Of a stretch of 64,000 nt of DNA, positions 6,783-57,098 are shown piece by piece. A model generated the notes under the pieces. It searched no databases, had not been told where the DNA came from, and saw only the letters and a program-made list of their open reading frames with translations. Location: assembly GCA_947629655.1 (NCBI GenBank), contig CANREL010000004.1, positions 13,577 through 77,576 of the forward strand, in the 5' to 3' direction. This stretch comes from an uncultured Bacilli bacterium. Lineage in GTDB: Bacteria > Bacillota_I > Bacilli_A > RF39 > UBA660. The first letter of the stretch is position 1, and every line of letters starts with the position of its first letter. The position numbers and the translations under genes are program-made.

Positions 6783-6794
6783 AGTGGGGGTTAA

Positions 6795-7616: not shown

Positions 7617-7624
7617 GTGATCAT

Positions 7625-8248: not shown

Positions 8249-8252
8249 TTAG

Positions 8253-8876: not shown

Positions 8877-8890
8877 ATGAGAGGTGTCAT

Positions 8891-10018: not shown

Positions 10019-10024
10019 TATTAA

Positions 10025-10285: not shown

Positions 10286-10288
10286 AAG

Positions 10289-11491: not shown

Positions 11492-11520
11492 AGTAAACTA
11501 TGTTTACTTTTTTTATTTTT
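11491..11520 (+). terminator. Intrinsic terminator.
   Basis: Hairpin AAGTAAAC-tatg-GTTTACTT followed by a T-run. Confidence 0.6.
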
Positions 11521-11547
11521 TCTTGATACAATTATAATGGTGATAGT

Positions 11548-14537: not shown

Positions 14538-14540
14538 TTA

Positions 14541-14566
14541 GAAAGTTTGATACTTTCTTTTTTTTC
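14541..14566 (+). terminator. Intrinsic terminator after proS.
   Basis: GAAAGT-ttgat-ACTTTC hairpin followed by T9. Confidence 0.65.
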
Positions 14567-14614
14567 GACAAAATTCTTCTCGAAGAGATATTATCATCAT
14601 AATAGGTGATTAAT

Positions 14615-38277: not shown

Positions 38278-38294
38278 TTAGAAAGGAAATTATT

Positions 38295-39122: not shown

Positions 39123-39135
39123 AAAGAAGATAATT

Positions 39136-39975: not shown

Positions 39976-39981
39976 TTTTTT

Positions 39982-40012
39982 TAAGAGAATTTTTATTCTC
40001 TTTTTCTTATTT
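39982..40012 (+). terminator. Intrinsic terminator.
   Basis: AAGAGAAT-tttt-ATTCTCTT hairpin followed by a T-run. Confidence 0.55.
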
Positions 40013-40029
40013 TAAAATATCTATTACTA

Positions 40030-40038
40030 TGTTATAAT
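40030..40038 (+). promoter_or_regulatory. Extended -10 element TGtTATAAT upstream of the tad genes.
   Basis: TGTTATAAT lies 32 nt upstream of the ATG at 40070. Confidence 0.35.
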
Positions 40039-40069
40039 TATATTGATAATAATAGGAAGGGTTGATTTG

Positions 40070-40426
40070 ATGAAAAATAAGCAAAGTGGTCAAGCATTAA
40101 TAGAATTTGTCATTATTTTACCAGTTGTGATCTTGCTTATTTTTTCTTTTGTAGATTTGGGTAGAATTGTTTTAGAAAATAATAGATTAGAGAATTTAAC
40201 TACGAGTGTTATTGAAAAATATAATGAGACTAAAAAATATGATGATGTCATTTCTTATATCGATTCATTAGGATATGAAAAAGTTGATTTATCTATTTCT
40301 GCACATGATGATATGTTGACGATTAAACTCACTGAAAAAATTGACTTAGTTACGCCAGGACTTTCAAAAATCATGGGTGATCCTTATAAAGTTGAAGTAG
40401 AGAGAGTTGTTAAATATGAAAAATGA
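40070..40426 (+). CDS. TadE-like pseudopilin.
   Basis: N-terminus SGQALIEFVIILPVVILLIFSFVDLGR matches the TadE-like domain (G/xxxxEF). Confidence 0.65.
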   Translation: MKNKQSGQALIEFVIILPVVILLIFSFVDLGRIVLENNRLENLTTSVIEKYNETKKYDDVISYIDSLGYEKVDLSISAHDDMLTIKLTEKIDLVTPGLSKIMGDPYKVEVERVVKYEK

Positions 40427-41192
40427 AAAAGGTCAAGTATTAGTTCTTTTCATAATGATTTTACCACTTCTATTATTAGGAGGAGCGTGTATCGTTGATT
40501 CTTCTTATATGTTATATCAAAAAAATCGTTTAGATAATATAAATCGTGATGTTTTGAATAGTGTCAATAATAGTTCTTCTTTGAGTGAAGAAGTAATTGA
40601 TGAAATAATTAGAGAAAATGATGCGAAAATTGTCAATGATGAGATATCGATTGATGAGAAAATTGTGATTAAAAATCATGTGATGGTCGATAGCCTATTT
40701 GGAAAGATAATAGGTATTGATAAATATAGAGTCAATTCAGAAGTCAGTGTAAAAGCTAAGAGATTGATATTAGATATCGATAGTTTAAAGAATATTGATA
40801 ATACTGGTAATTATTCAGTTATCAATAATAATGTCATTTATGATGGAGGATTAGTTTTTAAAGATTCTGATTTGGTGATTAATAATTTTAATATGAATGG
40901 TGACTTTGAGATAAATATTTCTTTTTCATTTGAAAAAAATGGTAATTTATTAGAATTCAATAATCTTTTGATAAATATTAGTAATGATGAATTATTCATA
41001 AATGGAAAAAGAGTTACTAGTTTAAAAATTGGTGAAAAATATGATTTAGTCATAACTAAAGATCGAGTTGTATTAAATGGTGATAGTTCAGTATCTTCTA
41101 ATGATATTGACAATTATTCTGGTGATTTGATCATTGGTAAGGGATTCAGTGGAAAAATAGAATTCATAAAAATATATAATATTGGAAATTAG
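40416..41192 (+). CDS. TadE/TadG-like pilus-assembly protein.
   Basis: N-terminus EKGQVLVLFIMILPLLLLGGACIVD matches a TadE-like N-terminal helix. The ATG at 40416 overlaps the upstream stop. Confidence 0.55.
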   Translation: MKNEKGQVLVLFIMILPLLLLGGACIVDSSYMLYQKNRLDNINRDVLNSVNNSSSLSEEVIDEIIRENDAKIVNDEISIDEKIVIKNHVMVDSLFGKIIGIDKYRVNSEVSVKAKRLILDIDSLKNIDNTGNYSVINNNVIYDGGLVFKDSDLVINNFNMNGDFEINISFSFEKNGNLLEFNNLLINISNDELFINGKRVTSLKIGEKYDLVITKDRVVLNGDSSVSSNDIDNYSGDLIIGKGFSGKIEFIKIYNIGN

Positions 41193-41200
41193 GTGAAAAT

Positions 41201-41974
41201 ATGGAAAGTAAAAAAGGTAAAATTCTTACGATTACATCAATGAAGGGTGGAGTTGGAAAAACGATGGTGACGATGCTTCTAGCTAATGTTTTTTCGAAAT
41301 GTGGTAAAAAAGTATTAGTTGTCGATTTGGATTTATACAATGGTAATTTAGCTTTTGCTTATAAAACTAGAGTAAAAAGTTCTATCTATAATTTGTGTGA
41401 TGACATAGCTAATAATCGTTTAGTCAATGGAATAACATCTGAATACGTTTCAAAGATAAGTGATAATTTATACTTTATCGCGGCACCTAAGGATCCACGT
41501 CAAGCTAATAAGATTGATAATAAATATCTCGATAGCATTTTGAAATCATTATCTTTTTTATACGATGTCATTTTAATCGATACTAATCATATATTAAGTG
41601 TTTCTAACATGGTCGCTTTTGAAAACAGTTATAAGATTGTTGACCTTGTCACCAATGACAGCTTTGATTTACAGAGTACGAAGAGTTTTGTGGCCATCTG
41701 TAAGAACATGGGTGTTGACAATTTAGTTTTGATGTTAAATAACGCCATTGATTCACGAAGAGGTTACTATACGACTTATGACATGAAAAATATTACGAAG
41801 AAGAATATTGATTATACAATTCCAAGCGCTTTCTATTTAAAGAATTTTGATCAGTTGGTAATGGATGGTAAGATTGGTTTCTTTGATGAATATTTAAAGG
41901 GTGAAGCTAAAAAGAGTTTGGAAGATTTTGCTGGTCACATGTTAAGTCTCATTGATGATGGAGGTAAGGAATAA
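41201..41974 (+). CDS. CpaE/TadZ-like ParA/MinD-family ATPase.
   Basis: Deviant Walker A SMKGGVGKT. Positioned between the tadE-like and cpaF genes. Confidence 0.7.
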   Translation: MESKKGKILTITSMKGGVGKTMVTMLLANVFSKCGKKVLVVDLDLYNGNLAFAYKTRVKSSIYNLCDDIANNRLVNGITSEYVSKISDNLYFIAAPKDPRQANKIDNKYLDSILKSLSFLYDVILIDTNHILSVSNMVAFENSYKIVDLVTNDSFDLQSTKSFVAICKNMGVDNLVLMLNNAIDSRRGYYTTYDMKNITKKNIDYTIPSAFYLKNFDQLVMDGKIGFFDEYLKGEAKKSLEDFAGHMLSLIDDGGKE

Positions 41975-43359
41975 TGAAGAAATCTAGTTGGTTAGAAGAA
42001 TTTGATGTAGTTGATCTATCTCCTAAAGTTGATACTCATGAATCTGATTATGAAGTGTTTGAAGATAAGAAGTTACTCGACAATTTTAGAAATAGTATCA
42101 TTCAGGAATTGATCGATAGTAATATAAGTGATAATAGTAATTTATCACAATACATAAATGAAGAAATAGACCGCATTACTGATGGATATGATTTGAGTGG
42201 TCAAGAGAGAAATTATCTTTTGAATTTGATTGAAAATGAAGTTAATGGTTATGGACCAATTACGGAGCTTTTGGATGATAAAAACGTTACAGAAATAATG
42301 ATAAATGGTCCAGATGAAATATATATTGAAGTCGATGGTGTTCTATCACGTGATAAAAGTGTTTCTTTTATCAATGCTGATCACATCATTCGAACTGTTC
42401 AAAGAATAATTCAACCCCTTGGTAGAACGATAGATTCCGCAAGTCCGATGGTCGATTCGCGACTTCCTGACGGTTCAAGAATTAATGCGATCATTCCACC
42501 ATTGTCTGTCAAAGGACCAGTGGTGACAATTCGTAAATTTAAAGATGATATCGACAATATCGATTCTCTAATTGGTAATGGAACACTAACACCTTATATG
42601 GCTAGATTTTTAGATGCCTGTGTCGATGCACGATTAAATATTTTGGTCTGTGGTGGTACTGGTAGTGGTAAGACGACACTTCTAAACGTCTTATCAAACT
42701 TTATCGGTAATGAAGAGAGAATAATCACGATTGAGGATGCTGTCGAATTGCGATTAAAACAAGATCATGTCATTTCACTTGAGACTAAAAGTACTAACTA
42801 TGATCAAGAAGGCGAAGTGACAATTCGTGATTTGGTCAGAAACTCATTACGTATGCGACCTGACCGCATAATTGTTGGTGAAGTTCGTGGTAAAGAAGCA
42901 TTTGATATGCTTCAAGCGATGAATACTGGTCATGATGGAAGTTTGACTACGTTGCATGCCAATGGTTGTAGAGACGCTTTAAATAGACTTGAAACGATGA
43001 TTTTAATGGGTGAGTTGGAACTTCCTATCAAAGCTATCCGCGGTTATATAGAAAGCGCAATTGATATCGTCATATCAGTTGAAAGATTGAGTGATGGTAA
43101 GAGAAAAGTTACATCAATATCAGAAATTGTCGGTTTTGATGGGGAAAACATTCAATTAAAAGAAATATTTGGTTTTATTAAACATGGATTGACGGAAAGT
43201 AAAGAGGTAAATGGAGAATTCATCCTATACGATTACGTTCCAGAAGTTTATGAAAAGATTAAGAGTCGTGGTATTAATACCATTGATGACATGTTTGTAA
43301 AAGAGGAAAAAAAGAAAAAAAGTTCAGTTAAAAAAACAACAAAAAAGACTAAAAAGTAG
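41974..43359 (+). CDS. tadA: CpaF/TadA secretion ATPase (type II/IV secretion NTPase).
   Basis: Walker A GGTGSGKTTLLN, Asp box, Walker B IIVGEVRG, His box TTLHANG. 461 aa. Confidence 0.9.
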   Translation: MKKSSWLEEFDVVDLSPKVDTHESDYEVFEDKKLLDNFRNSIIQELIDSNISDNSNLSQYINEEIDRITDGYDLSGQERNYLLNLIENEVNGYGPITELLDDKNVTEIMINGPDEIYIEVDGVLSRDKSVSFINADHIIRTVQRIIQPLGRTIDSASPMVDSRLPDGSRINAIIPPLSVKGPVVTIRKFKDDIDNIDSLIGNGTLTPYMARFLDACVDARLNILVCGGTGSGKTTLLNVLSNFIGNEERIITIEDAVELRLKQDHVISLETKSTNYDQEGEVTIRDLVRNSLRMRPDRIIVGEVRGKEAFDMLQAMNTGHDGSLTTLHANGCRDALNRLETMILMGELELPIKAIRGYIESAIDIVISVERLSDGKRKVTSISEIVGFDGENIQLKEIFGFIKHGLTESKEVNGEFILYDYVPEVYEKIKSRGINTIDDMFVKEEKKKKSSVKKTTKKTKK

Positions 43360-43370
43360 GAAGTGATAAA

Positions 43371-44387
43371 ATGGATACAGCACTTGATATAATCATTTTT
43401 ATAATTCAAGTGATAACAGGATTTGTACTGTTGTACATCGCTTATCGTCTATTCAGATTTTATCGAACAGTAGGGTTTGATAAGCGCTTTGGACCTTATT
43501 CTGTCGAATTGTTAGAAGATGATAGTGAATCGTTTTTTGACATGGTCAGTTATTATTATGACAAAGTACAAAATTATCTTTCAAAGTCTTTGATAAAAAT
43601 AAAAATATTTGATAGTTATAGTAAAAAATATGAAAAGTATAGTTATGGAAAAAGAGTTAATGCGATAGATGATATGAATTATATATCGAAAAAGATATTC
43701 ATTGGTTTACTATGTGTATTTCTACTATTATTCTCTTGTATTTTTAGATATGTACACGTAAGTTTACTATCGATTTTATTAGCTTTCTTAGTAGGTTTTT
43801 TTGCTCTTGATGTCTATTTGATAATTTATGATAGAATGCGAAAAAACAGTATTGAAAAAGATATTAATAAAGCGGTCATCATCATGAATAATGCCTTTAA
43901 ATCAGGTTATAGTATCATGCAGGCAATATACCTTGTCCATACACAAATGGATGGGGCGATAAGTGAAGAATTTAGAAAGATGTACATCGATATTACTTTT
44001 GGGTTGAACATGGAAGTAGTCTTTAATCGTTTCGCTGATCGCGTTGATTGTGTTGAAGCTCGCTACATGGCTACATCTTTAGGTGTTGTCAATAGGACTG
44101 GTGGAAATATCATTCAAGTTTTTGATGCCGTTGAAAGAAATGCTACGACGAGGCAACGATTGAAAGAAGAACTTAGCAGTGTTTCAGCATCGGCTCGTGC
44201 TATGTTTAAGATTTTGGTATGCATTCCAATATTCATAATTGGTATTCTATTGATTTTAAATCCTACTTATTTTGCACCACTATTCAAAACACCAATAGGT
44301 ATTTTGTGTTTGTTATTGAGTGTGATCATATATGTTTTATACATCATCATCATTAGAAAAATTATATATGTGGAGGTTGATTTATGA
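43371..44387 (+). CDS. tadB: TadB-like (T2SS-F family) inner-membrane platform protein.
   Basis: 338 aa with three or four TM helices and a T2SF-like cytoplasmic domain. Follows cpaF. Confidence 0.7.
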   Translation: MDTALDIIIFIIQVITGFVLLYIAYRLFRFYRTVGFDKRFGPYSVELLEDDSESFFDMVSYYYDKVQNYLSKSLIKIKIFDSYSKKYEKYSYGKRVNAIDDMNYISKKIFIGLLCVFLLLFSCIFRYVHVSLLSILLAFLVGFFALDVYLIIYDRMRKNSIEKDINKAVIIMNNAFKSGYSIMQAIYLVHTQMDGAISEEFRKMYIDITFGLNMEVVFNRFADRVDCVEARYMATSLGVVNRTGGNIIQVFDAVERNATTRQRLKEELSSVSASARAMFKILVCIPIFIIGILLILNPTYFAPLFKTPIGILCLLLSVIIYVLYIIIIRKIIYVEVDL

Positions 44388-45097
44388 AAAAGGTAAAGAA
44401 TAAGAAAAGAACTCTTTCACGTAGTATTTTTTCTAAGAGACAAATCGATAGAATTCAAAGAAAAATCGATTTATTAGGTGAAAATAGTAAATTTGATGCG
44501 ATTTTCTTCTTAAATTTGCGCTTTATTTCTTCCATAGTTCTATTTTTAGTGGTATTATATGTATTTGAGTTGGGGTACTTCTTAGCACCACTAATCACGT
44601 TTATTTACTATTATTTAATTTACTATCTTTTAATTGAATACAATATAAATAAGAGATGTGATAAATTAGATGTTGAAGCGATGTATTTTTTTGAAGTTAT
44701 GACTTTGGCATTAGAATCTGGTAATAATTTAAAAAATGCTTTAGATATGACTTGTAGTAATGTGGACAATGAATTGTCTAGAGAATTTCGTAAAGCTCTT
44801 GATGAAGTTGATTACGGAAAGAGTTTGAATGAAGCTTTAGAGAGTTTGAAGCTTAGAATACCTTCGGATACAATTAACAATATTATTTTGAATATCATGC
44901 AATCTAATATTTTTGGTAATAATATAACTAATGATATGTACAATCAATTGGATTACATTAGAGATAGAGAAATTCAAAAAGCTAAGAGTAGAATTAGTAA
45001 AATACCTCTATACGTATCAGTCATTTCAGTCGTATTTTATGTACCTTTGATAATGTTGTTGATTTTATCACCAGTTATAATAGAATTTTTAAGTTAG
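44384..45097 (+). CDS. tadC: TadC-like (T2SS-F family) inner-membrane platform protein.
   Basis: 237 aa with TM helices. Start overlaps the tadB stop (ATGA). Confidence 0.65.
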   Translation: MKKVKNKKRTLSRSIFSKRQIDRIQRKIDLLGENSKFDAIFFLNLRFISSIVLFLVVLYVFELGYFLAPLITFIYYYLIYYLLIEYNINKRCDKLDVEAMYFFEVMTLALESGNNLKNALDMTCSNVDNELSREFRKALDEVDYGKSLNEALESLKLRIPSDTINNIILNIMQSNIFGNNITNDMYNQLDYIRDREIQKAKSRISKIPLYVSVISVVFYVPLIMLLILSPVIIEFLS

Positions 45098-45108: not shown

Positions 45109-45828
45109 ATGAGTGGACATTCAAAGTGGGCAACTATCCATAGAAAAAAAGGATTATTGGATGCTGAAAGAGGAAAGATTTTCCAAAAGATTGCTAAAGA
45201 ATTATACGTAGCTGCGAAAGGGACAAATGGTAATCCAGATGATAACCCCGGTTTGCGCTTAGTAGTTGAAAAGGCAAAGAGTAATAACATGCCTAAAGAC
45301 AACATTCAAAAAGCGATTGATAAAGCTGTTAAATCAGCTGGTGGTGAAGACTATGAATCAGTTAGATACGAGGGATATGGTCCAAATGGTGTCGCATTCA
45401 TGGTTGATTGCTTAACTGATAATCGCAATAGAACAGCGATGCTTGTCAGATCAACTTTTACTAAACGTGGTGGAAATCTTGGAACTGACGGATCTGTTTC
45501 ATACATGTTTGAAAGACGTGGGGTTATCGTCATCGATAAAACTCTTGAAGAAGATGAAGCAATGATGGTATGCCTAGATAATGGTGCAGATGATTTCATC
45601 GTCAATGATGACAGTTATGAAATATATACGACACCTGATGATTTCATCAAAGTAAAGACAGCTTTAGAAGAAAGTGGTGTCAAAGAGTTTTTAACTAGTG
45701 AGATTACATATGTAGCTAATAATTTAGTTGAACTTGATGAAGAAGCAACAGAAAGAGTCATGGCCTTAGCTGATGCTCTAGATGAAATTGATGACGTTCA
45801 AAACGTATATCATAATTTGAGTATTTAA
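45109..45828 (+). CDS. yebC: YebC/PmpR-family transcriptional regulatory protein.
   Basis: MSGHSKWATIHRKKG N-terminus, 239 aa. Confidence 0.9.
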   Translation: MSGHSKWATIHRKKGLLDAERGKIFQKIAKELYVAAKGTNGNPDDNPGLRLVVEKAKSNNMPKDNIQKAIDKAVKSAGGEDYESVRYEGYGPNGVAFMVDCLTDNRNRTAMLVRSTFTKRGGNLGTDGSVSYMFERRGVIVIDKTLEEDEAMMVCLDNGADDFIVNDDSYEIYTTPDDFIKVKTALEESGVKEFLTSEITYVANNLVELDEEATERVMALADALDEIDDVQNVYHNLSI

Positions 45829-45877: not shown

Positions 45878-48800
45878 ATGAGCTATATAAAATCTTTTGA
45901 TGAAGAAGAATTTGAATCTTTAAAAGAGTATTGTCAAAAATATAGTTCTCAATATGGACTCAGTGCTCATGTCATGGAGTTATTAGATGAGAATGGACTT
46001 TATTATTTGAATAAATTTGTCAATGATGATGAAGATTTTGATGAACGTGATTTTGATACTTTAATAAGAGCTTTCTTTGATGGTTTTGATTTTTATTATG
46101 ATCGTTTAGATGATAATTATTTATTAGCGGCTAAAGAAAAATTAGAAGAGACTTTTTCATTCTTTGAAGATAGTCATTTAGATGATGAACACAAAAGTGA
46201 AATTGTCGATAATTTTTTTGAAATACTATCGAGTTATACGCGTGAAGAGTTGAGTGATAGTAAAGCTTTATACTATTTATTGACTTCTGATGTTTTTAGA
46301 AGGAGCAACATGGTTAAAGAATATTTGTACAATTCTTATAATTCGGTTGCTACTAGTAAAGAAAAGTTGGTCTTTTTTGTCAAAAATCTATATGATTTAT
46401 TGAACAAATTACCATATGAAGATGCTCACAAAGTCGATTATATATTTTTGAGTAGTTCTGATGCCTTCACTTATTTTTTAGATGTACCTGAAGAGATGAA
46501 TATCTTTTTTAATGAGAGAATTTTATCAAAATTTGGAAAAGAGACCTTGAGCTTTCTATTCAGAATGTCAGATTATTCTGTCTTCAGCAGTTTTTGTAGA
46601 TCTGATGATAAGTTTTTGTCTGTCGTAGCAGCTATGAATGAATACGTATTAAAAAAATATAATAAAAATTCTTATTTCTTTGATGGAGTTTTTAAATTTT
46701 TTAACAGATTTGAGAAAAAAGATATTAGAGCTAGAAAAATAATCATTGATCTATTCTCTGAATATTATGACAAATATTTTGAAGAAAGTAAAAAGAATGG
46801 TTTTGAAAACGATGAGATTTTTAATAATTTATTGGGATTAATTCTGCAACATCGTGATGTAATATATTTTTTGAATGAAAAAAATATTGAAAATTTAGAT
46901 GATTTCTTTAAAGCGACGAGAGAGAAAATAGATGAATTACACACGACTATATTTGGTAAGGAAGGTTTGGTCAAGTTTAAATATGGTGTCTTTGATCCAA
47001 AAAAAGATTTTCCACCTTTTGAGATGCGAGTACAGGGACTACACGATTTGAAAAATGCTTTCTTGCAAAGAGTTTATGGAATAACTTATGAAGATGCCTT
47101 TTATATCGCGTCAAAATATGGAACTTTTATCGAGCTATGTCAAGATGAAATAGCGGATGAAGATCGTGATGTTTATGAGATAGTTAAGACGATAACCGAT
47201 GTCGCTAATATGATTGATTACAATGGTAATAAAATAAATAATATTAGATTAGCTGCCCATGAATTTATTAAGAATAAGGGACTTTATAATTATAATAATG
47301 GGTCTTGTTATCCGATTCTATTATCATTGATTAATCGCATGTACATGCATGCATATAATGATTGTGTCTTTAAAGTTGATGAAAATTCTAAAGTTTTATA
47401 TCGTCAAAGAAAAGTTCCTGTAATTGATGCAGGAGTTAATTTCAACATGATTGTAAGTTCTATCAATGCTGTTGATGAGTTTTATACCAGTCGTGATAAC
47501 ATGATGGAGAAGTACAACATATCGAGTCGTTCCAATAATCAAGGAATTTGTGCAAGTTTTATCAATAATGAAAGTTTAGGAGTCATATCTTTACGCCAAC
47601 CATTAATTGGGTATGCCAATTTAGCTGATGACAGTTTGGATGCGATGGGAGTTGGTGATATATATTCCAAAACGATTGATTTAGATTTGTTGAGAGCTAA
47701 TTCTACAACTGGTGAGGGAAATTATTTCTTCACTCCTAAAAAATATATCGATTATACAAGATTTGGATATAACGAAATGGTCGTTGATCGCTTTTTGGTC
47801 AAAGATGATGACGATGCGATAAAAGTTCAACCGAGTTACATAGTTGTCTATAAAATAGATGACAATTATAAAAAGACTAGAATGTATAAAAAAGGAATAA
47901 GAATGGCTAGAGATTTTGGTGTTCCACTAGTCTTAGTTGACGTTCCAAAAGTTAAAGAAAATGAACGTGATATCATTCTTCAAAAAGAAAAAGAATTATT
48001 CAAAAGTAGTAAAGTCGATAAGGAATTATTAAATGAAATAGTAACGCGTTATATGAATAATTACAGTGGATCTTTAACGATTATGCGAAGTCGAAATCGC
48101 CGTGGAAATGAATGGCACTATCCAAAGGATTTCTCTGTGCGTGGTTTGACGAGATTTTTAGATAAAGTGGCTCGAAAGTTTGAAGATTTTGATGAAGCAC
48201 AAATAGAAGAGTGGAGTCAAGCTTTGAACGAAGTTTATAATTTAGAAAAAGAAAAGAACAAAATGGCTTTACAAATAAATGATTATGAGGATTCATTGAG
48301 TGGTGGAGAATTTTTACTCGATGATAAGATCATGTTTTCAGAATTTGTTCAAAATATCAAAGATCGCAATATCAATCGTCTTCTTCTCAGAAAGGGCATG
48401 TTTGATCAAGATAAATATTTACACATACCAGATGTCAAAGTACCAAGTGATGTCCAATTGATTGTCGATTTAGCAAACTTATTGTGTAAGAGTAAAGTTT
48501 ATGCCAATGTCAGTGGTCACAATGGGGAAAATATTTATCAGACGAAGAAGACTTATGATTATAGTGAAGAAGAAAAAAATGCTTATGGTCTCGTAATTTC
48601 TTATTTACTTGGGGACTATAGTACTAATTATTTTGCTAATCTCGATACTTGTGATATTACAAATATCAAAATTGATGAAAATATCCAACGCGTTGAGAGG
48701 TGCCTAGATGGCAATGATGCTTTTTCTAATCAGAATATCGATACAGAATTGTTATTAAAAGTTGCTACAGATATTGAAGATCTACCAACGGCAATCTTTT

Positions 48801-48958
48801 CTAAAGTGTTTAGACCATTCATTCAAGATTACAGTGCAAAGATGGGCGTTGCTCCAGATAAAGTACGCGATAATTTTCTTCGTAAGAAAGAACACATTTT
48901 TAGTGAGATGTCTAAATTTGCCCGTTCTGATAGAATTAATAAAGCAATTAGTAAATAA
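45878..48958 (+). CDS. Giant cytoplasmic protein, paralog A (1026 aa), of an unrecognised family: ~480-aa helical N-terminal domain, ~300-aa conserved core, and a variable C-terminal extension.
   Basis: Good RBS AAGGGTGGTGA, no signal peptide. Shares colinear motifs with the 53730 and 57111 ORFs: LLNRMYM, IDAGV.FNMIV, QG[IL]C[AV]S, R[FY]GYNE[MI]..[DE]RFL, QPSY[IV]V.YK, [DE]FG[VI]P[LM]V[LV]VD and RYMNN.SG. Confidence 0.7.
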   Translation: MSYIKSFDEEEFESLKEYCQKYSSQYGLSAHVMELLDENGLYYLNKFVNDDEDFDERDFDTLIRAFFDGFDFYYDRLDDNYLLAAKEKLEETFSFFEDSHLDDEHKSEIVDNFFEILSSYTREELSDSKALYYLLTSDVFRRSNMVKEYLYNSYNSVATSKEKLVFFVKNLYDLLNKLPYEDAHKVDYIFLSSSDAFTYFLDVPEEMNIFFNERILSKFGKETLSFLFRMSDYSVFSSFCRSDDKFLSVVAAMNEYVLKKYNKNSYFFDGVFKFFNRFEKKDIRARKIIIDLFSEYYDKYFEESKKNGFENDEIFNNLLGLILQHRDVIYFLNEKNIENLDDFFKATREKIDELHTTIFGKEGLVKFKYGVFDPKKDFPPFEMRVQGLHDLKNAFLQRVYGITYEDAFYIASKYGTFIELCQDEIADEDRDVYEIVKTITDVANMIDYNGNKINNIRLAAHEFIKNKGLYNYNNGSCYPILLSLINRMYMHAYNDCVFKVDENSKVLYRQRKVPVIDAGVNFNMIVSSINAVDEFYTSRDNMMEKYNISSRSNNQGICASFINNESLGVISLRQPLIGYANLADDSLDAMGVGDIYSKTIDLDLLRANSTTGEGNYFFTPKKYIDYTRFGYNEMVVDRFLVKDDDDAIKVQPSYIVVYKIDDNYKKTRMYKKGIRMARDFGVPLVLVDVPKVKENERDIILQKEKELFKSSKVDKELLNEIVTRYMNNYSGSLTIMRSRNRRGNEWHYPKDFSVRGLTRFLDKVARKFEDFDEAQIEEWSQALNEVYNLEKEKNKMALQINDYEDSLSGGEFLLDDKIMFSEFVQNIKDRNINRLLLRKGMFDQDKYLHIPDVKVPSDVQLIVDLANLLCKSKVYANVSGHNGENIYQTKKTYDYSEEEKNAYGLVISYLLGDYSTNYFANLDTCDITNIKIDENIQRVERCLDGNDAFSNQNIDTELLLKVATDIEDLPTAIFSKVFRPFIQDYSAKMGVAPDKVRDNFLRKKEHIFSEMSKFARSDRINKAISK

Positions 48959-49026: not shown

Positions 49027-49058
49027 GATAATATAGGAATATTAGGATAGGTGATTAT

Positions 49059-49877
49059 ATGGAAGATTTAGAAAAACTTGGAAAGTTTGAAACTTTACAT
49101 TTAGGTGGAACTGGTACTATGTACTTAGTACATGGGGAAACAAAAAATTACATTTATAAACCGGCTGAAAGTAAGTTCAGTCATCAAAAAGAACCTTTTA
49201 GAGGAATAGTTCAAGAATGTGCTTATGAATTACAAGAGATAGTTGATCCAGTTTCAGCGGTCGTATGTAGATATGTTGATGCGGGAAAGATTTGTGGATC
49301 TGTTCAGGAACTGATCGTCGTTGATAAAAATGCTCCTGACTATAGAGATATGCAATATGCTGGTCAAATACCTGAATTATCATCTTCAGAAGTTGATCAA
49401 TTCATGAGAGAATTTGTAACTGATTATTTATTGTACAATTATGATTCACACGGAAAAAATTTTATAACTGACCAACAGGGAATCATTAGAGGTATTGACA
49501 AAGAACAATCTTTTAGATACATGCGTGAAAAGAAAGCGCAAACACTTGATTTGTATTACTCACCTAATGCGGCTTATGGTGAAGCTGAACCAATATACAA
49601 TACTATTTTTAGAGCGTATCGCGATGGTAAATTAGACATTGATTACAGTGTCATCAGTGGATGCATGGATAGAGTTGAAGCAGTCAGTGAAGACAGATAT
49701 CGCGCCATATTCGCTCCTTATTGTGAAGCTTGTGGTAAAGCTTTTGGTCAAAATCCTAATGAGATGTTAGATCAGATTGTCGCAAGACGCAATACGATGC
49801 GTGAAAAAGTGGATACTTTCTTTCAGGGATTGACTGAGGAACGCGAAGTTAATTTGAGTTCAGGAAAGGGAAAATAA
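49059..49877 (+). CDS. Atypical protein-kinase-like protein (HipA/CtkA/PI3-4K-like catalytic loop).
   Basis: Glycine-rich LHLGGTGTMYLV and catalytic-loop-like YNYDSHGKNFI (D.H.KN, as in HipA GNxDxHxKN). A downstream IRGIDKEQSF could be the DFG equivalent. The family call is inferred from motifs only. Confidence 0.45.
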   Translation: MEDLEKLGKFETLHLGGTGTMYLVHGETKNYIYKPAESKFSHQKEPFRGIVQECAYELQEIVDPVSAVVCRYVDAGKICGSVQELIVVDKNAPDYRDMQYAGQIPELSSSEVDQFMREFVTDYLLYNYDSHGKNFITDQQGIIRGIDKEQSFRYMREKKAQTLDLYYSPNAAYGEAEPIYNTIFRAYRDGKLDIDYSVISGCMDRVEAVSEDRYRAIFAPYCEACGKAFGQNPNEMLDQIVARRNTMREKVDTFFQGLTEEREVNLSSGKGK

Positions 49878-49878
49878 T

Positions 49879-51147
49879 ATGTTAGATAGTGAGGATAAGA
49901 AGTATAATTTTCATTCTCATACTTTTAGATGTGGTCATGCTTCAAATCTTCCTGATTCCACTTATTTAAATGTGGCTTTAAATAACAACTATAATAAGTA
50001 TGGTATTACTGACCATGCGCCTGTTCATCCCATTTTTTATGGCGATTCCAAAATGCGCATGAATGATAGTGAGCGATATGAATATATAAATGCGATTAAC
50101 AATTTGAAAGTGATGTATGCTAAAGAACTAGAAGTCTTTTGCGGATTTGAAGCTGAGTATGACGAAATTATTGAAGAGTATCTATGCGATTTGCGCGATA
50201 GTGTCGATTACATGATTTTGGGACAACACTATGTCTTAAATAGAGATATTAGAAAAAGTCCCAATTATCCAATAGAGTATGCGAAAAAAGTTTGTAAAGG
50301 AATTGAGAGCGGTTTATTCGACATCGTTGCTCATCCTGATATCTTTATGAAATTTCGCACTTCTTTAAAAGATGATGATAGTAGAGAAACATTCATGAAA
50401 AATGCTTACTTAGCATCAAAAATGATTTGTGCTAAAGCAAAGGAATATAATGTACCGCTAGAATTAAATTTAGGAGGAGTCCACATCTTTCCTCGAAAGA
50501 GAATTGAAAGTTTAGATATTGCTCTACCAACTGATTTCTTTCAAGATGATGATGATATGGATTATATCGATTATCCAACAAATTTATTTTGGAATATAGC
50601 TATTGAAATGGGAAATAGTGCTGTCGTTGGAATCGATGCACATTTTCCAAATGAAATTGAAGATCGTGAAGAAAAATTAGAAAGAATTAATCGATATATT
50701 GATCTCTCTAAAATAAATTTTTTACCAAATTCTTATGATCCTGTTAAAGCACGTTTAAACAATCCCAAATTGGAAGAAGCATATCAAAAGACGAAGGACA
50801 GTTTAAATTCAGTTGAAGCGCGATTAATAGATGACATAGTTAGTAAGAGTCTTGAAAGTGATAAAGAAGTTAAGCGTCATTCTTTGGCAACACAAATATC
50901 ACGCAGTTTGAAGTCACCAACTCATATTAGAGCGGTTCCCTTTGGCAATGGTTTTCTAACTCAAGATCAAATATATGACGACATGACTAAAAGAAATAGA
51001 GATGAGTTAGCAATTGTCGCAAGAAATGGTATCATGAGAACAAAAAGTCGTGATAGTGATATTTTTAGAACAGAACTACTAAATGAAATAGATGCTTATT
51101 ACCGTCATCAAGAAGTTGTTAATAAAGAGATTAAAAAGAATAAATAA
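49879..51147 (+). CDS. PHP-domain (HisJ-like) metal-dependent phosphoesterase with a ~150-aa C-terminal extension.
   Basis: N-terminal HSHTFRCGHAS (PHP motif I); later DHAP and FCGFEAEYD, then H-x-H like VAHPDIF. The ATG immediately follows the kinase-like gene's stop. Confidence 0.6.
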   Translation: MLDSEDKKYNFHSHTFRCGHASNLPDSTYLNVALNNNYNKYGITDHAPVHPIFYGDSKMRMNDSERYEYINAINNLKVMYAKELEVFCGFEAEYDEIIEEYLCDLRDSVDYMILGQHYVLNRDIRKSPNYPIEYAKKVCKGIESGLFDIVAHPDIFMKFRTSLKDDDSRETFMKNAYLASKMICAKAKEYNVPLELNLGGVHIFPRKRIESLDIALPTDFFQDDDDMDYIDYPTNLFWNIAIEMGNSAVVGIDAHFPNEIEDREEKLERINRYIDLSKINFLPNSYDPVKARLNNPKLEEAYQKTKDSLNSVEARLIDDIVSKSLESDKEVKRHSLATQISRSLKSPTHIRAVPFGNGFLTQDQIYDDMTKRNRDELAIVARNGIMRTKSRDSDIFRTELLNEIDAYYRHQEVVNKEIKKNK

Positions 51148-51200: not shown

Positions 51201-51219
51201 AAGATAGTGGGTGAAAAAG

Positions 51220-52503
51220 ATGGTTAATGTGTCAAATAAAAAGATATTATCGCTAACGCTTAATGAACTTATTAATATATCTTTAGATGATACTTTAGTC
51301 ATGTTGAATAATGATTTGACCAAAGTGGATAAGTATAGTTCTGATTATGCTTTATCAATCGCATCAGCTATCGTAAAAAGAATATTTTTAATTAAGAATT
51401 TTGCCCATCAATATGATAAATTTTATAAAATAATAACTTCTAATGAATTTAGAAATAATAAATATATTTATAGTGCTTTAAAAGATGAAAATACAACGCT
51501 TAGTGATTTGTTAGACGTCTATGATGATGCTGAAGAATTGACTAGTCTCATCGATGCCATTCTCATGAAAAATGAAAAGATGTTTGATGAATTAGTCTAT
51601 GGTCAATACAATGTACGTGAATTGTTTTCTTTAGAATTTGTCAATAAATTTAATCATAATTCTTTTAAAAGAATTTTATCTTTTTTGTTGAAAGATAGTG
51701 ATAGAAAAAGAGTTGTTAAAGCTCTATTCAAAAATAAGAATAATAAATTCATATACATGGTATCAAAAATGGATGATGTCGTTTTACAATACAGTAAAGA
51801 TGATACGAGTTATTTAGATGCCGTTTTAGTCATGTTAAATTACAACAATTATCGTCATCTCTTATGGGATTATTACAATAAATATATTGGTAATATAGAA
51901 AATGAGAATCTTATGAACAGTCCAGAATATCGTAAAGAAGTACCTGATGAGTTAAAAGAATTATTAAATTATACTTTTGCACTGATGGATTATAAGTATT
52001 TAAATGACAAAGTTCCTGAGATAATATCTAGTATCGATGAGTTGATAAGTTCTTTAAATGAAGGAAAAGATATGGTTCATACTACTGTTTTTGGGGTCAG
52101 TGGTTATGAAAAGGTCAAGAATGAAAGTTTTGATATCTTATTTGATTTTCCAAAGATGGATGATGAAAATAAATTGTTGAATTTAAAGATTGCTTTTTTT
52201 AGTAATATATATGGTATAACTTATGATCAAGCAGGGAAAATAATTGATAATTTTGATGATTTTATGAAAGATTTTGATGGATCTTTTGATAAAAAAGATC
52301 AATTGATATATGAGACAGTGATAGCGATGAAGTCTTTATATGATTTAAAGTTAGATGATAAAGATGGAATTGATCTATATCGTGAAGTATATTATAAATA
52401 TGTTAAAAAGAATGGATTATATGCTCCCGTTGAGTTATCAGCGGCAATCATGATGGAAGAGTTGATGCATAGAATGTATGAGAATTCTATAGAAATAATC
52501 TAG
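51220..52503 (+). CDS. N-terminal-domain-only paralog (about 428 aa) of the giant family.
   Basis: Aligns with the N-terminal halves of paralogs A, B and C (VHTTVFGVSGYEKV...IYGITYDQAGKI vs TIFGKEGLVKF...VYGITYEDAFYI) and ends just before the core domain (ELMHRMYENS vs LLNRMYMNTY). The ATG at 51220 follows a GGGTG RBS; the ORF track uses the GTG at 51211. Confidence 0.65.
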   Translation: MVNVSNKKILSLTLNELINISLDDTLVMLNNDLTKVDKYSSDYALSIASAIVKRIFLIKNFAHQYDKFYKIITSNEFRNNKYIYSALKDENTTLSDLLDVYDDAEELTSLIDAILMKNEKMFDELVYGQYNVRELFSLEFVNKFNHNSFKRILSFLLKDSDRKRVVKALFKNKNNKFIYMVSKMDDVVLQYSKDDTSYLDAVLVMLNYNNYRHLLWDYYNKYIGNIENENLMNSPEYRKEVPDELKELLNYTFALMDYKYLNDKVPEIISSIDELISSLNEGKDMVHTTVFGVSGYEKVKNESFDILFDFPKMDDENKLLNLKIAFFSNIYGITYDQAGKIIDNFDDFMKDFDGSFDKKDQLIYETVIAMKSLYDLKLDDKDGIDLYREVYYKYVKKNGLYAPVELSAAIMMEELMHRMYENSIEII

Positions 52504-52537: not shown

Positions 52538-53641
52538 ATGAGTGAAATTTATAAAGACAATGAAAGAGTAGATGAAAGAGAAGCAGAAAAGAATTCTATT
52601 TTGGATGATTACTTAAAAGACGTTGGGCCAATTTCAAAATTTATTAATGAGGGCTTTGAAGAGATTGATAGGGATCTTGGCGTTCAAGATGGTGTTTTAG
52701 GATTTGCGGTAGGAGATGCTTTGGGTGTCCCTGTTGAATTTTCAAGACGTGAAACTTTGATAGATAGACCAGTTGTTGATATGATGGAGTATGGTGTTCA
52801 CAATCAACCAAAGGGAACTTGGAGTGATGATACTTCAATGATGATTGCTACAATGGATGCCATTATCAATAGTTCAAAGATTGATTATCACAAGATAGCT
52901 GATAATTTTTGCCTTTGGGCTAGCAGTAGAAAGTTTAATCCTCATGGTAAATTGTTTGACATTGGAATTACGACGAGTGATGCTCTTAAGCGTTACATGT
53001 TTGAAGGATGTGAGCCTACAAAAGCTGGCAATAAAGGTTATTATGACAATGGTAATGGTTCACTAATGCGCATTTTACCTTTGGCATATTACTTTAATAG
53101 TAATAAGATGTCCGATGAAGAGATGGCTACTATCATCAATAATGTCTCATCAATAACGCATGCTCATCCAATCAGTTGTATGGGATGTTATCTATACGTA
53201 AAATATGCCATGGATTTATTAGATGGAAAAGATTTCAATGAGGCTTATCAAGATCTACTAAGATGTGATGTATCAATGTATGATAATGATACAGTCAAAG
53301 CTTATGGTCGTATTTTAAGTGGTGAACTTGGACAAATAAAGGATCAAAATAAGATTAAATCTAGTGGCTTTGTCGTCGATTCTTTAGAGGCATCTATTTG
53401 GTGTTGCTTAAATAGTGATAATTATAAAGTTGCGACTTTGAAAGCTGTCAATCTTGGCGATGATACCGATACGGTTGGAGGATTGACAGGAGGATTAGCG
53501 GGTATTAAATATGGACGTGAAAGTATTCCTAAGAATTGGGTCGATTCTTTAGCACAAAAAGATTATTTAGTCGAGTTGTGTGATGAATATCAAAAAACGA
53601 TAAAAAAAACAGCAAATTTGAATAAAATTAGACATGTTTAA
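52538..53641 (+). CDS. ADP-ribosylglycohydrolase (ARH/DraG family) with a ~50-aa N-terminal module.
   Basis: ARH motifs GFAVGDALGVPVEF, WSDDTSMMIAT and, at the C-terminus, GDDTDTVGGLTGGLAG. The N-terminal ILDDYLKDVGPISKFINEGFEEI block is repeated in the 60097 ORF. Confidence 0.8.
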   Translation: MSEIYKDNERVDEREAEKNSILDDYLKDVGPISKFINEGFEEIDRDLGVQDGVLGFAVGDALGVPVEFSRRETLIDRPVVDMMEYGVHNQPKGTWSDDTSMMIATMDAIINSSKIDYHKIADNFCLWASSRKFNPHGKLFDIGITTSDALKRYMFEGCEPTKAGNKGYYDNGNGSLMRILPLAYYFNSNKMSDEEMATIINNVSSITHAHPISCMGCYLYVKYAMDLLDGKDFNEAYQDLLRCDVSMYDNDTVKAYGRILSGELGQIKDQNKIKSSGFVVDSLEASIWCCLNSDNYKVATLKAVNLGDDTDTVGGLTGGLAGIKYGRESIPKNWVDSLAQKDYLVELCDEYQKTIKKTANLNKIRHV

Positions 53642-53729: not shown

Positions 53730-56700
53730 ATGGATGATCAAAGTATTGATAATGATTCTTTCTTGGAAGAAGATGATTTATATAGTGCAGTTGTAAACTC
53801 AGATGAAGAATTCGATGATGAGGATTTAGAAGATACACTTGATTTAGGTCTCTTTTCTAAAAATGATATGGACGAATCACCTAGTTTTGACGATGAAGAA
53901 GACTTACCGGAATTAGATAGTGATACTTTAAATGATCCTTTTCAAGATCCCTTTGATTCATCTTTGAGTAAAAGTTTCTTTCCACAGATGCAGGCCGTTT
54001 TAAAAAAGAGTGAAGCTATTGCTGTTAAACCAAGTATTTTAGATAAAAAAATTGTTGAATTAGAATCTATTCCCATTCAGGAATTGAGTGAAAAATTACT
54101 TGAAGAGATTAGAAGTTTAGAAAGTGAGACACCAGAATTTAGAAATGCACAATTACAAAGTATTTTTTCAAGAATATTAGAATTTCAACCAGTCAATAAG
54201 GCCGGTTCAACAAATGATTCGCATTTTGAAAAATATGAACAGAGATTGTTTACTGATCTAGTAAGTGCGATTGGCCTTTCCGATATCGATTTTGTCAAAG
54301 ACTTTTTAAAGTCAAGTTTTAAGTACGGCGGAAATAGTAGTAAAGTTCAACAGCGAAAATTATTATTACAAGTATTCGATTATTATGATACTCATTCTGA
54401 AGATGCCATTGAAAAATTCAATTACATATTTAGAAGTAGTGAAGCTATAGGTATAATGTTACTTGATGAACCAGAACTTTTAAAGACGCAATATTTTTCT
54501 AATCGTGTCATGGAACTATTTAGTAAAGAAAGTTTATCGCAACTTTATAGATTTAAATTTGTGATGGGTTATCAAGAGTTGGAGAATTTAGTCAAAGAAG
54601 AAAATGCTAAAGCTCTTTTTGTCGTTTCCCAAATGTGTAATTATAGTACCAATGTCATCGGTCATGATTTTGAATTCATGTCAGCTGTTTTTAAACAAAT
54701 TTCAACAAATCCAAAATTTTTTCAGTTGTTGAGTGATTCTTATGATTCTTTAGTTCATGGTGATGAAAAAGCTCATATGGCCAAAAAGGAATTAGAACCC
54801 GAATTTCGTAAATTGATGAATTATATATTGAATCAGTCATATGATAAAAGAGCGCTTGGTAGAAGTGACCATAGTAATATTTCAACACTTGCTGATTTTA
54901 TGAAATATGTTTCTAAACAGAGTGAAGAATTTCATGATTATGTCGTTAGACCTGGTACTTTATCAAAGATAGAAGATGAAACTTTTGATCCTGAAAATGA
55001 TTTCTTGAAAATTACTGATAAACAAGATTTACAAAATTTTAAACGTGGTATATTGATGGGAATTTATGGTATAAGTTTTGAAGAAGCTAAACATTACGTA
55101 TCACAATATGGTCAATACATGGAAGCTTTGGAAAAAGGAATTGTCGATGAAGATAAAGAAATTCTTCAGGTTTTAAAATCCATATGTTCAATTGTCAAAC
55201 TAGATGAAACTGATCAAAATTTTGAATCAAAAATTAGTCAGTTACAAACTGCTTATGCATATCAGATTAAGAAAAATGGACCTTATTTCCAAGATAAATA
55301 CGTTTCGACGATGATTCTTCAAGGTTTATTCAATAGAATGATAATGAATACTTATAACAAGAGAAATCTTTTAGCTTCCAGTTGTGAAGAACTTGGACGT
55401 GATGACGATGTAGTCTTGTTGGATGCGGGATATGATTTTGATATGGTAGTAACGTCTTTTAGTGGCGTTGAGAGTTTTTATCAATCTGGAGTTAATATGG
55501 CTAGTAAGTGGAATACGGCAGCTCTATCAGAAGGTCAAGGTCTTTGTGTATCACATATTTCTTCTCAAAATTTAGGAGTAATTTCTTTACAATCTCCAAT
55601 TATTGGATTTAGTAAGATTCCACAATACGCTTTAGATAGTATGGGACCAAATGATATATTCACTAATATCTCCAGTTATAATTTGCGCATGTTAAATGAA
55701 AATCGTGGTCGTGTTCAAAATCGTTTTTTCATTCCAGCTAATGTCATGTCTGATGAACAGCGATATGGTTATAATGAGATTTTGCTTGAAAGATTTTTAT
55801 CACAAGATGAAAAAGGCGATATCAAAATACAACCTAGTTATGTGGTATGTTATAAGATGAATGAAAATTATAAACAGTCTTTAAATTATAAACAATCTTT
55901 GAAAGTAGCTAAAGACTTTGGCATTCCAATGGTTGTCGTCGATGTCATGAAGATTAAGGAAAAAGAACAAAGTATCATCGAAGAACAACAACAACAATTG
56001 TTGAGTAGTGAAAAAGTCGATCTTGCAATGATGCATGATATTGTGACGCGATATATGAATAATTATACGGGATCTTTGACCATGTGTTGGGAGAATCAAT
56101 CTGATTGGCGCTATAGAGAAGATTTCTCAGTACCGGGAATGCGTAATTTTTTTGATGAAGTATTTCGAAAAATTTCCAGTATTGATGATGAAAATTTACA
56201 AAAAGAGTGGTTGGATGCTTTAGAATTCGCTTATCGTGATGAAAAGAGAAAGAATGATTCTGCTCATAAAGTTAGCAGTTATAAAGGATCAGTTCGAGGA
56301 TTTATTTTTGATCGTGATATGGAGAGTGGTGGATTTGATCTGTTGACTAGAATTACTGATGCAAGAAATGGAAAGTTCACTTATGCAAGCGAAGTGTATG
56401 TGGAAGATGAACCAACTGCTGATTTAGGTATTGTAACGCAAGTTAAAGTTACTAAAGTCATGTTATCGGATGGTGTCACAGAAGGTATTTTTGTCACTCC
56501 ACAAGAACTTAAAGAGGAAGATATTGCCATTATCAGTCTAACTAATGCGATGGAGATGGGTTCAACTTTTGACCTTGAAGATTATTCTCTAAATGGAGTT
56601 GATGGTTTTGCCATAAAATATAATGAGGTAGAAGATCAAGATGTTGTCGCAGCTGAAAATTTAGTCGTAAGTTATCTATTTGCCAATTTTGAAAGTGCCT

Positions 56701-57098
56701 TTATTGAAGATGTAGGTTTTGATCTCGGTAAGAAAGTGGCTGATGAATATGAATTGAATTTGGAACCAAACTATGACGTCACCTACAAATTTGATAACTC
56801 ATTATATAGTTCGGTATTCAATAAGAATTCGGAGAATCATCTCGATTTCAACCACGATATAATGGATAAGTACATCACTAAGATAGAGACGATGGACGAT
56901 AAAGATTTCTTAAAGATATTTACGCCAGTAATAGATAAAAAAGCAAGTGCTCTACAAAAGAGTCAAGAAGAGATAGGTGCCATTCTATTGGATCGCAAAG
57001 CCAATATTCGTTCACAATTCAACAACTTAGAACAGCACATCGCTATTGTTAATGGTGAAGCAGTAGACGTTATCAGTGATCATTTATCAACAAAGTAA
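53730..57098 (+). CDS. Giant cytoplasmic protein, paralog B (1122 aa), with an acidic low-complexity N-terminus.
   Basis: The first ~90 aa are D/E-rich. The same conserved N-domain and core motifs as paralog A are present. Contains an in-frame tandem duplication (NYKQSL twice) at 55866-55901. Confidence 0.7.
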   Translation: MDDQSIDNDSFLEEDDLYSAVVNSDEEFDDEDLEDTLDLGLFSKNDMDESPSFDDEEDLPELDSDTLNDPFQDPFDSSLSKSFFPQMQAVLKKSEAIAVKPSILDKKIVELESIPIQELSEKLLEEIRSLESETPEFRNAQLQSIFSRILEFQPVNKAGSTNDSHFEKYEQRLFTDLVSAIGLSDIDFVKDFLKSSFKYGGNSSKVQQRKLLLQVFDYYDTHSEDAIEKFNYIFRSSEAIGIMLLDEPELLKTQYFSNRVMELFSKESLSQLYRFKFVMGYQELENLVKEENAKALFVVSQMCNYSTNVIGHDFEFMSAVFKQISTNPKFFQLLSDSYDSLVHGDEKAHMAKKELEPEFRKLMNYILNQSYDKRALGRSDHSNISTLADFMKYVSKQSEEFHDYVVRPGTLSKIEDETFDPENDFLKITDKQDLQNFKRGILMGIYGISFEEAKHYVSQYGQYMEALEKGIVDEDKEILQVLKSICSIVKLDETDQNFESKISQLQTAYAYQIKKNGPYFQDKYVSTMILQGLFNRMIMNTYNKRNLLASSCEELGRDDDVVLLDAGYDFDMVVTSFSGVESFYQSGVNMASKWNTAALSEGQGLCVSHISSQNLGVISLQSPIIGFSKIPQYALDSMGPNDIFTNISSYNLRMLNENRGRVQNRFFIPANVMSDEQRYGYNEILLERFLSQDEKGDIKIQPSYVVCYKMNENYKQSLNYKQSLKVAKDFGIPMVVVDVMKIKEKEQSIIEEQQQQLLSSEKVDLAMMHDIVTRYMNNYTGSLTMCWENQSDWRYREDFSVPGMRNFFDEVFRKISSIDDENLQKEWLDALEFAYRDEKRKNDSAHKVSSYKGSVRGFIFDRDMESGGFDLLTRITDARNGKFTYASEVYVEDEPTADLGIVTQVKVTKVMLSDGVTEGIFVTPQELKEEDIAIISLTNAMEMGSTFDLEDYSLNGVDGFAIKYNEVEDQDVVAAENLVVSYLFANFESAFIEDVGFDLGKKVADEYELNLEPNYDVTYKFDNSLYSSVFNKNSENHLDFNHDIMDKYITKIETMDDKDFLKIFTPVIDKKASALQKSQEEIGAILLDRKANIRSQFNNLEQHIAIVNGEAVDVISDHLSTK

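Follow-up and report, generated by a model that had tools for sequence, protein, structure and literature searches.

The window, a 64,000-nt stretch of DNA from an uncultured Bacilli bacterium, carries a gene island in which a small kinase-like gene is coupled to a phosphoesterase gene with a spacer of a single nucleotide. The first gene encodes K, a standalone atypical protein-kinase-like protein of 272 amino acids (aa; 49059–49877), and the second encodes a 422-aa PHP-domain phosphoesterase, an offshoot of the HisJ clade that we call PHP (49879–51147). Position numbers are coordinates of the whole window unless another locus is named, and K, PHP and the other genes of the island described below lie on its + strand. 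K is predicted to have a protein-kinase-like fold of the PI3/4-kinase and HipA type with a complete catalytic set. We lean towards the view that K and PHP are a phosphorylation/dephosphorylation couple with a common target, with K being a kinase of the phage-effector type that settled in the chromosome.

Results

Predicted fold of K and its similarity to known kinases

The AF2 model of K has a pLDDT of 92, and a Foldseek search with this model returned PRPK, PI3K and CtkA at E values of about 1e-4. In the structure comparison the highest figures were those of type II PI4-kinase (15.4 and 14.9) and H. pylori CtkA (13.7), followed by CotH and Legionella MavQ (11.8 each), PI3K-alpha, actin-fragmin kinase and the Fam20 kinases (11.5 each), and HipA/HipT (9.6–10.9). 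By this comparison the modelled K has the bilobal kinase fold of protein-kinase-like (PKL) superfamily members, and the type II PI4-kinases and CtkA/HipA are its nearest predicted structural neighbours. An earlier note on this DNA had proposed a kinase-like fold for the 272-aa protein, and the matches to PI4K, PI3K, CtkA and PRPK place it within that fold class and not outside it. K shares with the PI3/PI4-kinase type a DxHxxN catalytic loop as well as the structural similarity of the catalytic core.

The Pfam search with K gave a sub-threshold match to HipA_C (PF07804) alone, covering aa 103–135 (E 0.016; 15.3 bits vs a cutoff of 30.5), and other weak echoes of HipA_C were seen in the K family (E 1.7e-4 and 2.1e-3). 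A PI3_PI4_kinase match (E 4.4e-5) was found in two of 31 K relatives, and the window K itself had no match to this family (PF00454) at E ≤ 1. No match to K was found in NCBIfam, PHROGs or PADLOC, and none of its 35 close homolog clusters has a Pfam domain. Searches of the PDB sequences, made with the single sequence and with profiles of 33 and 21 sequences, returned Bcl-xL, calpain and eS17, all of them spurious, and thus gave no sequence link to a solved kinase.

Conserved motifs of K

The predicted catalytic set of K begins with a glycine-rich loop, LHLGGTGTMYLV (aa 13–24; 49095–49130), whose G16-G17-x-G19 motif lies in an N-terminal strand-turn-strand. It is followed by K34, the predicted ATP-binding β3 lysine (in YIYKPA; 49158–49160), by the catalytic loop YNYDSHGKNF (aa 126–135; 49434–49463), which has the D129-x-H131-x-x-N134 pattern of PI3/4-kinases and HipA and is partly covered by the HipA_C match, and by D147-K-E-Q (49497–49508), the predicted metal-binding motif with the DFG-equivalent aspartate. 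The kinase roles of K34, D129, N134 and D147 were assigned by sequence order and secondary structure, not by superposition, and on this assignment an ATP-binding lysine, a catalytic aspartate and asparagine, and a metal-binding aspartate are all predicted to be present.

We analysed conservation in a close alignment of 33 homologs (38–69% identity) and in a diverse set (24–39% identity; profile from 21 sequences). In the close set G16, G17, G19, K34, E53 (located in the first long helix), N127, D129, H131, N134 and the D147-K-E-Q motif are invariant. In the diverse set invariance extends to K34, Q83, E118, D122, D129, D147 and K148; G17, N134 and E149 come close to it. The glycine-rich and YNYDSHGKNF segments had been quoted in the earlier note as kinase signatures; both are present, and their conservation among the homologs excludes a chance resemblance. 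The D.H.KN motif that it read in the second segment stands for D129, H131 and N134, which are conserved, and fails for K133, which is variable in the K family. On these sequence data K is apparently a catalytically competent atypical kinase of an uncatalogued PKL branch, and it is in this sense that we infer its kinase activity.

PHP belongs to a distinct subfamily of the HisJ clade

The PHP domain was confirmed by Pfam (PF02811; 34.8 bits vs a cutoff of 26.4, E 2.7e-8), and the HSHTFRCGHAS, FCGFEAEYD and VAHPDIF motifs expected from the first inspection are all present. Among solved structures, histidinol phosphatases come closest to PHP (PDB 2yxo, E 4.8e-10), whereas the HisJ-type NCBIfam models (NF005996 / TIGR01856) all match well below their cutoffs (55.4 vs 133, 66.6 vs 90.2 and 75.3 vs 202 bits). 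The catalytic core (about aa 9–270; 49903–50688) has the metal ligands H12, H14, H20, H46, E91, H117, H152, D253 and H255, and all nine are invariant in eight homologs, including fused versions with 30–34% identity.

The C-terminal tail of about 150 aa, which the earlier note had pointed out, is real and consists of two parts: a subfamily-specific extension (aa 280–315; 50716–50823), in which P288, R292, N295, K297, L298 and E313 are invariant, and a poorly conserved, variable soluble tail (aa 316–422; 50824–51144). Plain HisJ-like matches align to PHP from aa 8–264 to aa 8–284 only. The window PHP has no GH10 domain and no transmembrane (TM) anchor, and a survey of the annotated neighbours between 30.7 and 62.7 kb turned up no his genes. 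PHP had no match in PHROGs or PADLOC. Because the metal set is complete, the extension is conserved and the HisJ scores lie below the cutoffs, PHP is predicted to be an active phosphoesterase from a subfamily of its own within the HisJ clade rather than a generic HisJ. The view that it is specialised is also in line with the absence of these gene partners from its plain HisJ-like relatives, as described below.

Coupling of K and PHP and its conservation

Both open reading frames (ORFs) were found exactly where the earlier note had placed them, with the 1-nt spacing that it had read. The K stop codon TAA (49875–49877) and the PHP ATG (from 49879) form the junction TAAtATG (49875–49881), and the 3′ end of K contains a purine-rich stretch ahead of the PHP start codon. 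The spacer 5′ of K is 100 nt long and has a good ribosome-binding site, the Shine-Dalgarno-like AGGATAGGTGA (49044–49054), as read from the sequence. Promoter and terminator scans gave no signal above that of shuffled sequence.

The tight coupling is conserved. K is followed by PHP with a gap of 1–2 nt in L001, L006 and L008, and the two genes are adjacent in L009, so that adjacency is seen in four of five syntenic islands. At three distant genome loci (L018, L032 and L043) a protein of about 800 aa contains a homologous PHP domain (E about 1e-61) together with a weakly nucleotidyltransferase (NTase)-like N-terminus and a C-terminal TM helix. These NTase-PHP-TM fusions, and those of L170 and L173, end 5–6 nt upstream of K fusions, which in the first three loci are proteins of 660–690 aa made of a conserved 285-aa N-terminal domain and K. 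K fusions and PHP fusions have unrelated N-terminal domains, as a comparison of the two showed. Selection on the K–PHP linkage is indicated because adjacency is kept in two architectures, in two gene orders and at about 30–37% identity.

The linkage was also viewed from the PHP side in a metagenome scan, which we divided into two tiers: 32 loci of the true subfamily, with matches running through the extension, and 48 plain HisJ-like matches. The latter are genes for proteins of 250–320 aa, none of which has K, giant or ADP-ribosylglycohydrolase (ARH) neighbours. Among the subfamily loci, GH10+PHP fusions were confirmed by Pfam in the four tested (L151, L158, L167 and L176; GH10 E about 1e-30), and five of the 32 carry a protein of about 1650 aa matching the core of the giants described below (E 1e-13 to 1e-19). 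Six of seven inspected PHP members from outside the islands have a C-terminal TM anchor and no signal peptide. The K–PHP linkage is therefore real but facultative, and the PHP subfamily has several alternative partners. As a separate observation, three of the four confirmed GH10-PHP fusions end in a TM anchor and signal peptides are absent from all four, an unusual tail-anchored glycosidase-phosphoesterase architecture (GH10 is a xylanase family).

The K family is large and associated with phages

An exhaustive profile search gave 1313 representative K-family clusters (50% identity) at E ≤ 1e-3, of which 357 are found at E ≤ 1e-30. In most of them the K domain is internal to proteins of 500–3500 aa, and a class of about 1100 aa has MuF (PF04233)+K+Rho_N architectures according to Pfam. 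Of 31 multidomain members whose domains were surveyed, six have minor-capsid/MuF domains, four have ADP-ribosyltransferase (ART) exotoxin domains, two have Rho_N and one has NUDIX. In Mycobacterium phage McProf, gp54 (L066, 2579–6136) consists of a VG15 minor-capsid domain, K and ART, with K between the other two, and in phage Onyinye the K domain of gp16 (L067, 2266–6288) lies upstream of a C-terminal ART. The deposited labels of these proteins are “minor capsid and ADP-ribosyltransferase fusion” and “ADP-ribosyltransferase”, respectively, and the K domain is annotated in neither.

At least 99 confirmed viral K matches were found in IMG/VR, and all 80 viral copies examined are fusions (median 1135 aa, minimum 393 aa). 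In reference genomes the family is distributed across gut Bacillota, in both Bacilli and Clostridia. Standalone K was found in five Bacilli metagenome-assembled genome loci only, plus the window, where K is chromosomal and has no N-terminal MuF or minor-capsid domain. Judged by domain architecture, the K family is mainly a predicted module of phage virion-associated (MuF/minor-capsid) multi-effector proteins, often beside ART toxin domains.

The giant paralogs end in a K-like module

K and PHP lie among three giant proteins, G1 (1026 aa; 45878–48958), located immediately 5′ of K, G2 (1122 aa; 53730–57098) and G3 (993 aa; 57111–60092), which are paralogs with 32–34% identity. The order of a G1-like gene followed by K is kept in L003, L006, L008 and L009. 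A word-index search gave at least 3–4 homologous proteins for each giant. Their C-termini match the hidden Markov model (HMM) of the K family: in G1 at aa 952–1016 (48731–48925; E 1.2e-5), in G2 at aa 1003–1104 (56736–57041; E 3.3e-16), a region without catalytic motifs, and in G3 at aa 914–983 (59850–60059; domain E 5e-6). The C-termini of giants from related loci also match this HMM, and a viral K domain matches G2 aa 979–1097 in blastp (E 7e-5).

The shared part corresponds to the C-terminal four-helix module of K (aa 190–265; 49626–49853), which is modelled with a pLDDT of 97–99 and to which hhalign aligns the last 70–77 residues of the giants with a probability of 94–95%. In a MAFFT alignment the giants keep an LVxSYL helix at the position of FVTDYLL in K, whereas the SHGxN segment and the GIDKEQ hairpin are both deleted in them, and GGTG, K34 and E53 are missing. 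Because this helical module is homologous, the giants and K share ancestry for a C-terminal piece of about 70–100 aa. By these alignments the giants end in a remnant of K's C-terminal part that is catalytically dead; the claim stops short of a pseudokinase fold.

N430 (430 aa; 51211–52503) is a standalone paralog of the N-terminal ~430 aa of the giants (blastp against G1, G2 and G3, E 4e-17 to 9e-32) and is conserved in the syntenic islands. It had no family match, and PHROGs and PADLOC were empty for N430 and the giants. The conserved core of the giants (G2 aa 540–860; 55347–56300) contains many invariant polar residues, in motifs such as NQG.C, TRFGYNE, DRF, K.QPSY, VDV.KVK and RYMNNY.G, and these residues suggest an enzyme or a binding site; Pfam and PDB profile searches with the giants gave the core no fold or family. 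At L161–L164 and L166 NTase-PHP-TM fusions are followed by proteins of about 1650–1690 aa whose middle part matches this core (E 1e-13 to 1e-19), so that the PHP subfamily has a link to giant-like proteins in the absence of K as well.

The ARH gene of the island (367 aa; 52538–53641) has a full-length ADP_ribosyl_GH domain (PF03747, E 8.9e-67, profile positions 2–286 of 287). Its best NCBIfam match is the immunity hydrolase Tri1 (E 1.2e-53), with both the Tri1 and the DraG models below their equivalog cutoffs, and it also matches PHROG 6572. The earlier note had taken ARH to adjoin PHP, but the gene for N430 intervenes, so that ARH is one gene removed. In L062 the gene for a 3057-aa protein with an internal K (3506–12679) is followed, after about 1 kb, by the gene for a 478-aa protein (13633–15069) whose C-terminal part is homologous to the window ARH (E 5e-97), a further K–ARH neighbourhood. 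In the stretch recovered, L003/L007 have K, N430 and giants without PHP and ARH, which hints at joint gain or loss of PHP and ARH.

Surroundings of the island

The window has a G+C content of about 30%, and its + strand holds nearly all long ORFs. The island is flanked by yebC and pyrH, and the gene order is Tad operon (35.5–45.1 kb), yebC (45109–45828), G1, K, PHP, N430, ARH, G2, G3 and pyrH. The Tad/Flp-type pilus operon (35542–45097) is complete, with a TadE-like protein, a TadZ-like ATPase, CpaF/TadA, TadB and TadC, and it is preceded by a gene for a 911-aa protein that combines an N-terminal methylation motif with Listeria-Bacteroides repeats. In L003 the same Tad operon precedes yebC and the island. 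Searches for the PHP subfamily and for the giants in viral contigs found neither, and the island is thus not obviously a prophage.

The position directly after pyrH is usually occupied by frr. Here it holds an ORF of 188 aa (61098–61664), about the size of frr, which is not ribosome recycling factor; it had no match in Pfam or PDB, and a small membrane protein is predicted. The next protein (343 aa; 61700–62731) has a cohesin domain and a cadherin-like β-sandwich domain.

Discussion

In the mechanism that we lean towards, a free-standing copy of K would have settled in a chromosomal island of an uncultured gut Bacilli lineage as an active atypical kinase whose module either stems from a phage effector or is common to the two. 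K would be co-transcribed, and probably co-translated, with PHP. It would add phosphate from ATP, PHP would hydrolyse the phosphoester made by K, and ARH would take ADP-ribose off that target or one linked to it. The substrate could be a protein, a glycan or an ADP-ribose derivative; ART and NUDIX as fusion partners of K, together with the ARH of the island, point to ADP-ribose chemistry. The earlier note had suggested a writer/eraser set for phosphorylation and ADP-ribosylation. As regards the kinase and the phosphoesterase this is plausible. No ADP-ribosyltransferase that could act as the second writer was found in the island.

Several observations weigh against a dedicated couple. In L003/L007 K is followed directly by N430, with no PHP or ARH in the recovered stretch (which extends over 10 kb upstream and roughly 5.6 kb downstream), and this K (P0021) retains every catalytic residue. 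Most K fusions have no PHP nearby, and an adjacent K is present in only three of the 32 PHP-subfamily loci (L150, L170 and L173). About 12 of the 32 loci encode proteins of about 1000 aa that are, by size and similarity, apparent GH10+PHP fusions, and these point to a glycan or sugar-phosphate substrate rather than to a phosphoprotein made by K. The structural neighbours of K include lipid and sugar kinases, hence a protein substrate is not implied, and kinase-fold proteins can perform other reactions, such as AMPylation and glutamylation.

The GH10 fusions also lead to a different explanation, in which the substrate of K and PHP is of the carbohydrate or nucleotide-sugar type, the candidates being a glycopolymer of the cell envelope, a sugar phosphate and a derivative of ADP-ribose. 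K would then be a kinase for sugars or small molecules, and PHP a phosphoesterase for sugar phosphates. The four confirmed fusions, with about a dozen of the 32 loci alike in size and similarity, the tail-anchored nature of most PHP relatives and the co-occurrence of K with ART, NUDIX and ARH, all of them enzymes of ADP-ribose chemistry, would suit it. We nevertheless judge it unlikely, as the best structural matches of K are lipid and protein kinases, the window PHP has neither the GH10 domain nor the TM anchor, and no glycan-biosynthesis genes were found within the island. It is very improbable, in our estimate, that the adjacency is meaningless and that PHP is a diverged housekeeping phosphatase, for histidinol phosphate or another metabolite, merely located beside K. 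Such an enzyme would not be expected to score so far below the HisJ cutoffs (55 vs 133 and 67 vs 90 bits), to carry a conserved subfamily-specific extension, or to keep its place next to K across both architectures and gene orders at this level of divergence with, in the window, a 1-nt gap, and the plain HisJ-like relatives never neighbour K, a giant or ARH. What speaks for it is that the top database matches of PHP are histidinol phosphatases and that an adjacent K is the minority state in its subfamily.

A toxin-immunity pair, in which K would be a HipA-like growth-arresting effector, PHP its enzymatic antidote and ARH a Tri1-like counter to ADP-ribosylation, seems to us quite doubtful, somewhat more so than the carbohydrate alternative. 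An intact K occurs without PHP in L003/L007 and in most K-fusion loci, so that the supposed toxin is found without its immunity, and the fused versions have PHP ahead of K, whereas the order in the island, with the 1-nt gap, would fit a toxin-first, immunity-second arrangement. The resemblance of K to HipA/CtkA in structure, and weakly in sequence, would agree with a toxin, as would its relatives being modules of phage-packaged effectors that also carry ART toxin domains, and the best NCBIfam match of ARH is indeed Tri1. However, the island occupies a conserved chromosomal site (Tad operon, yebC, island) rather than a mobile or hypervariable one, and PADLOC was empty. These considerations leave us inclined towards the phosphorylation/dephosphorylation couple. 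A broader scenario extends it: the K family would be a large, hitherto undescribed group of kinases that are loaded, beside ADP-ribosyltransferases, into the capsids of tailed phages and injected into gut and soil hosts, and one lineage of gut Bacilli would have domesticated the module, with K, PHP and ARH jointly controlling the giants, whose dead K-module copies might serve as docking or decoy partners. We offer this as a speculation that is probably not correct as a whole.

Neither the fold class nor the two enzyme superfamilies are new. What appears to be new is the K family (Pfam, NCBIfam and PHROGs do not annotate it), its prevalence among multi-effector proteins associated with phage capsids, the standalone chromosomal K coupled to a specialised PHP, and the K-derived remnant in the giant paralogs. 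If K is active, a PKL family of more than 1000 sequence clusters is left unannotated by current domain libraries and is missed in deposited phage genomes, and phosphorylation would join the means of host modification that phages seem to bring along with their virions. As a standalone, soluble protein of 272 aa, K is a handy minimal representative for biochemistry and structure, and the conserved pairing with PHP offers a ready hypothesis for the reverse reaction. The link between K and the giants provides the first handle on an otherwise wholly unannotated gene cluster of uncultured gut Bacilli.

Compared with known systems, K has about 12% identity to PI4K2A of the PI3/PI4-kinase clan. It differs from this clan as a minimal 272-aa domain that lacks accessory regions, helical or lipid-binding, carries a C-terminal four-helix module of its own and comes from bacteria or phages, and a lipid substrate is not indicated. 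In contrast to HipA, CtkA and HipT, K consists of the kinase domain only, without the HipA N-terminal domain, scores below the HipA_C cutoff and does not conserve the loop lysine in its family; no neighbour of K carries a HipB-type helix-turn-helix antitoxin domain. PHP has in common with the HisJ histidinol-phosphate phosphatases the fold and the full set of metal ligands, but has in addition the conserved extension and a variable tail of about 100 aa, and the contexts of its subfamily are K, giants, NTase or GH10 and not his genes. The island ARH is, like the hydrolases of the Tre1-Tri1 and DraT-DraG systems, a full-length ADP_ribosyl_GH protein with Tri1 and DraG as its best equivalogs, but its scores stay under the cutoffs of both, and the island yielded no ART gene.

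CpsB and YwqE are PHP-family phosphatases that oppose kinases of the same operons, the kinase partner being a P-loop BY-kinase. This pairing of a PHP phosphoesterase and a kinase in one operon is the logic proposed by analogy for K and PHP, and it differs in that K is predicted to have a PKL fold.

Among phage proteins, a kinase module is absent from the listing of MuF toxins (Jamet 2017, PMC5576092), and we found no description of the K module in the papers on MuF toxins and polyvalent proteins that we consulted. A kinase clade of polyvalent proteins has been described that has a conserved Gln in the final N-lobe strand, lacks the C-terminal subdomain and is found mainly in Verrucomicrobia/Bacteroidetes (Iyer 2017, PMC5512222); K has the invariant Q83, with the two compared by description only. 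Most K-family members are internal modules of MuF and polyvalent phage head proteins of this kind, where K is joined to MuF, Phage_min_cap2 or VG15 as well as to ART, NUDIX or Rho_N.

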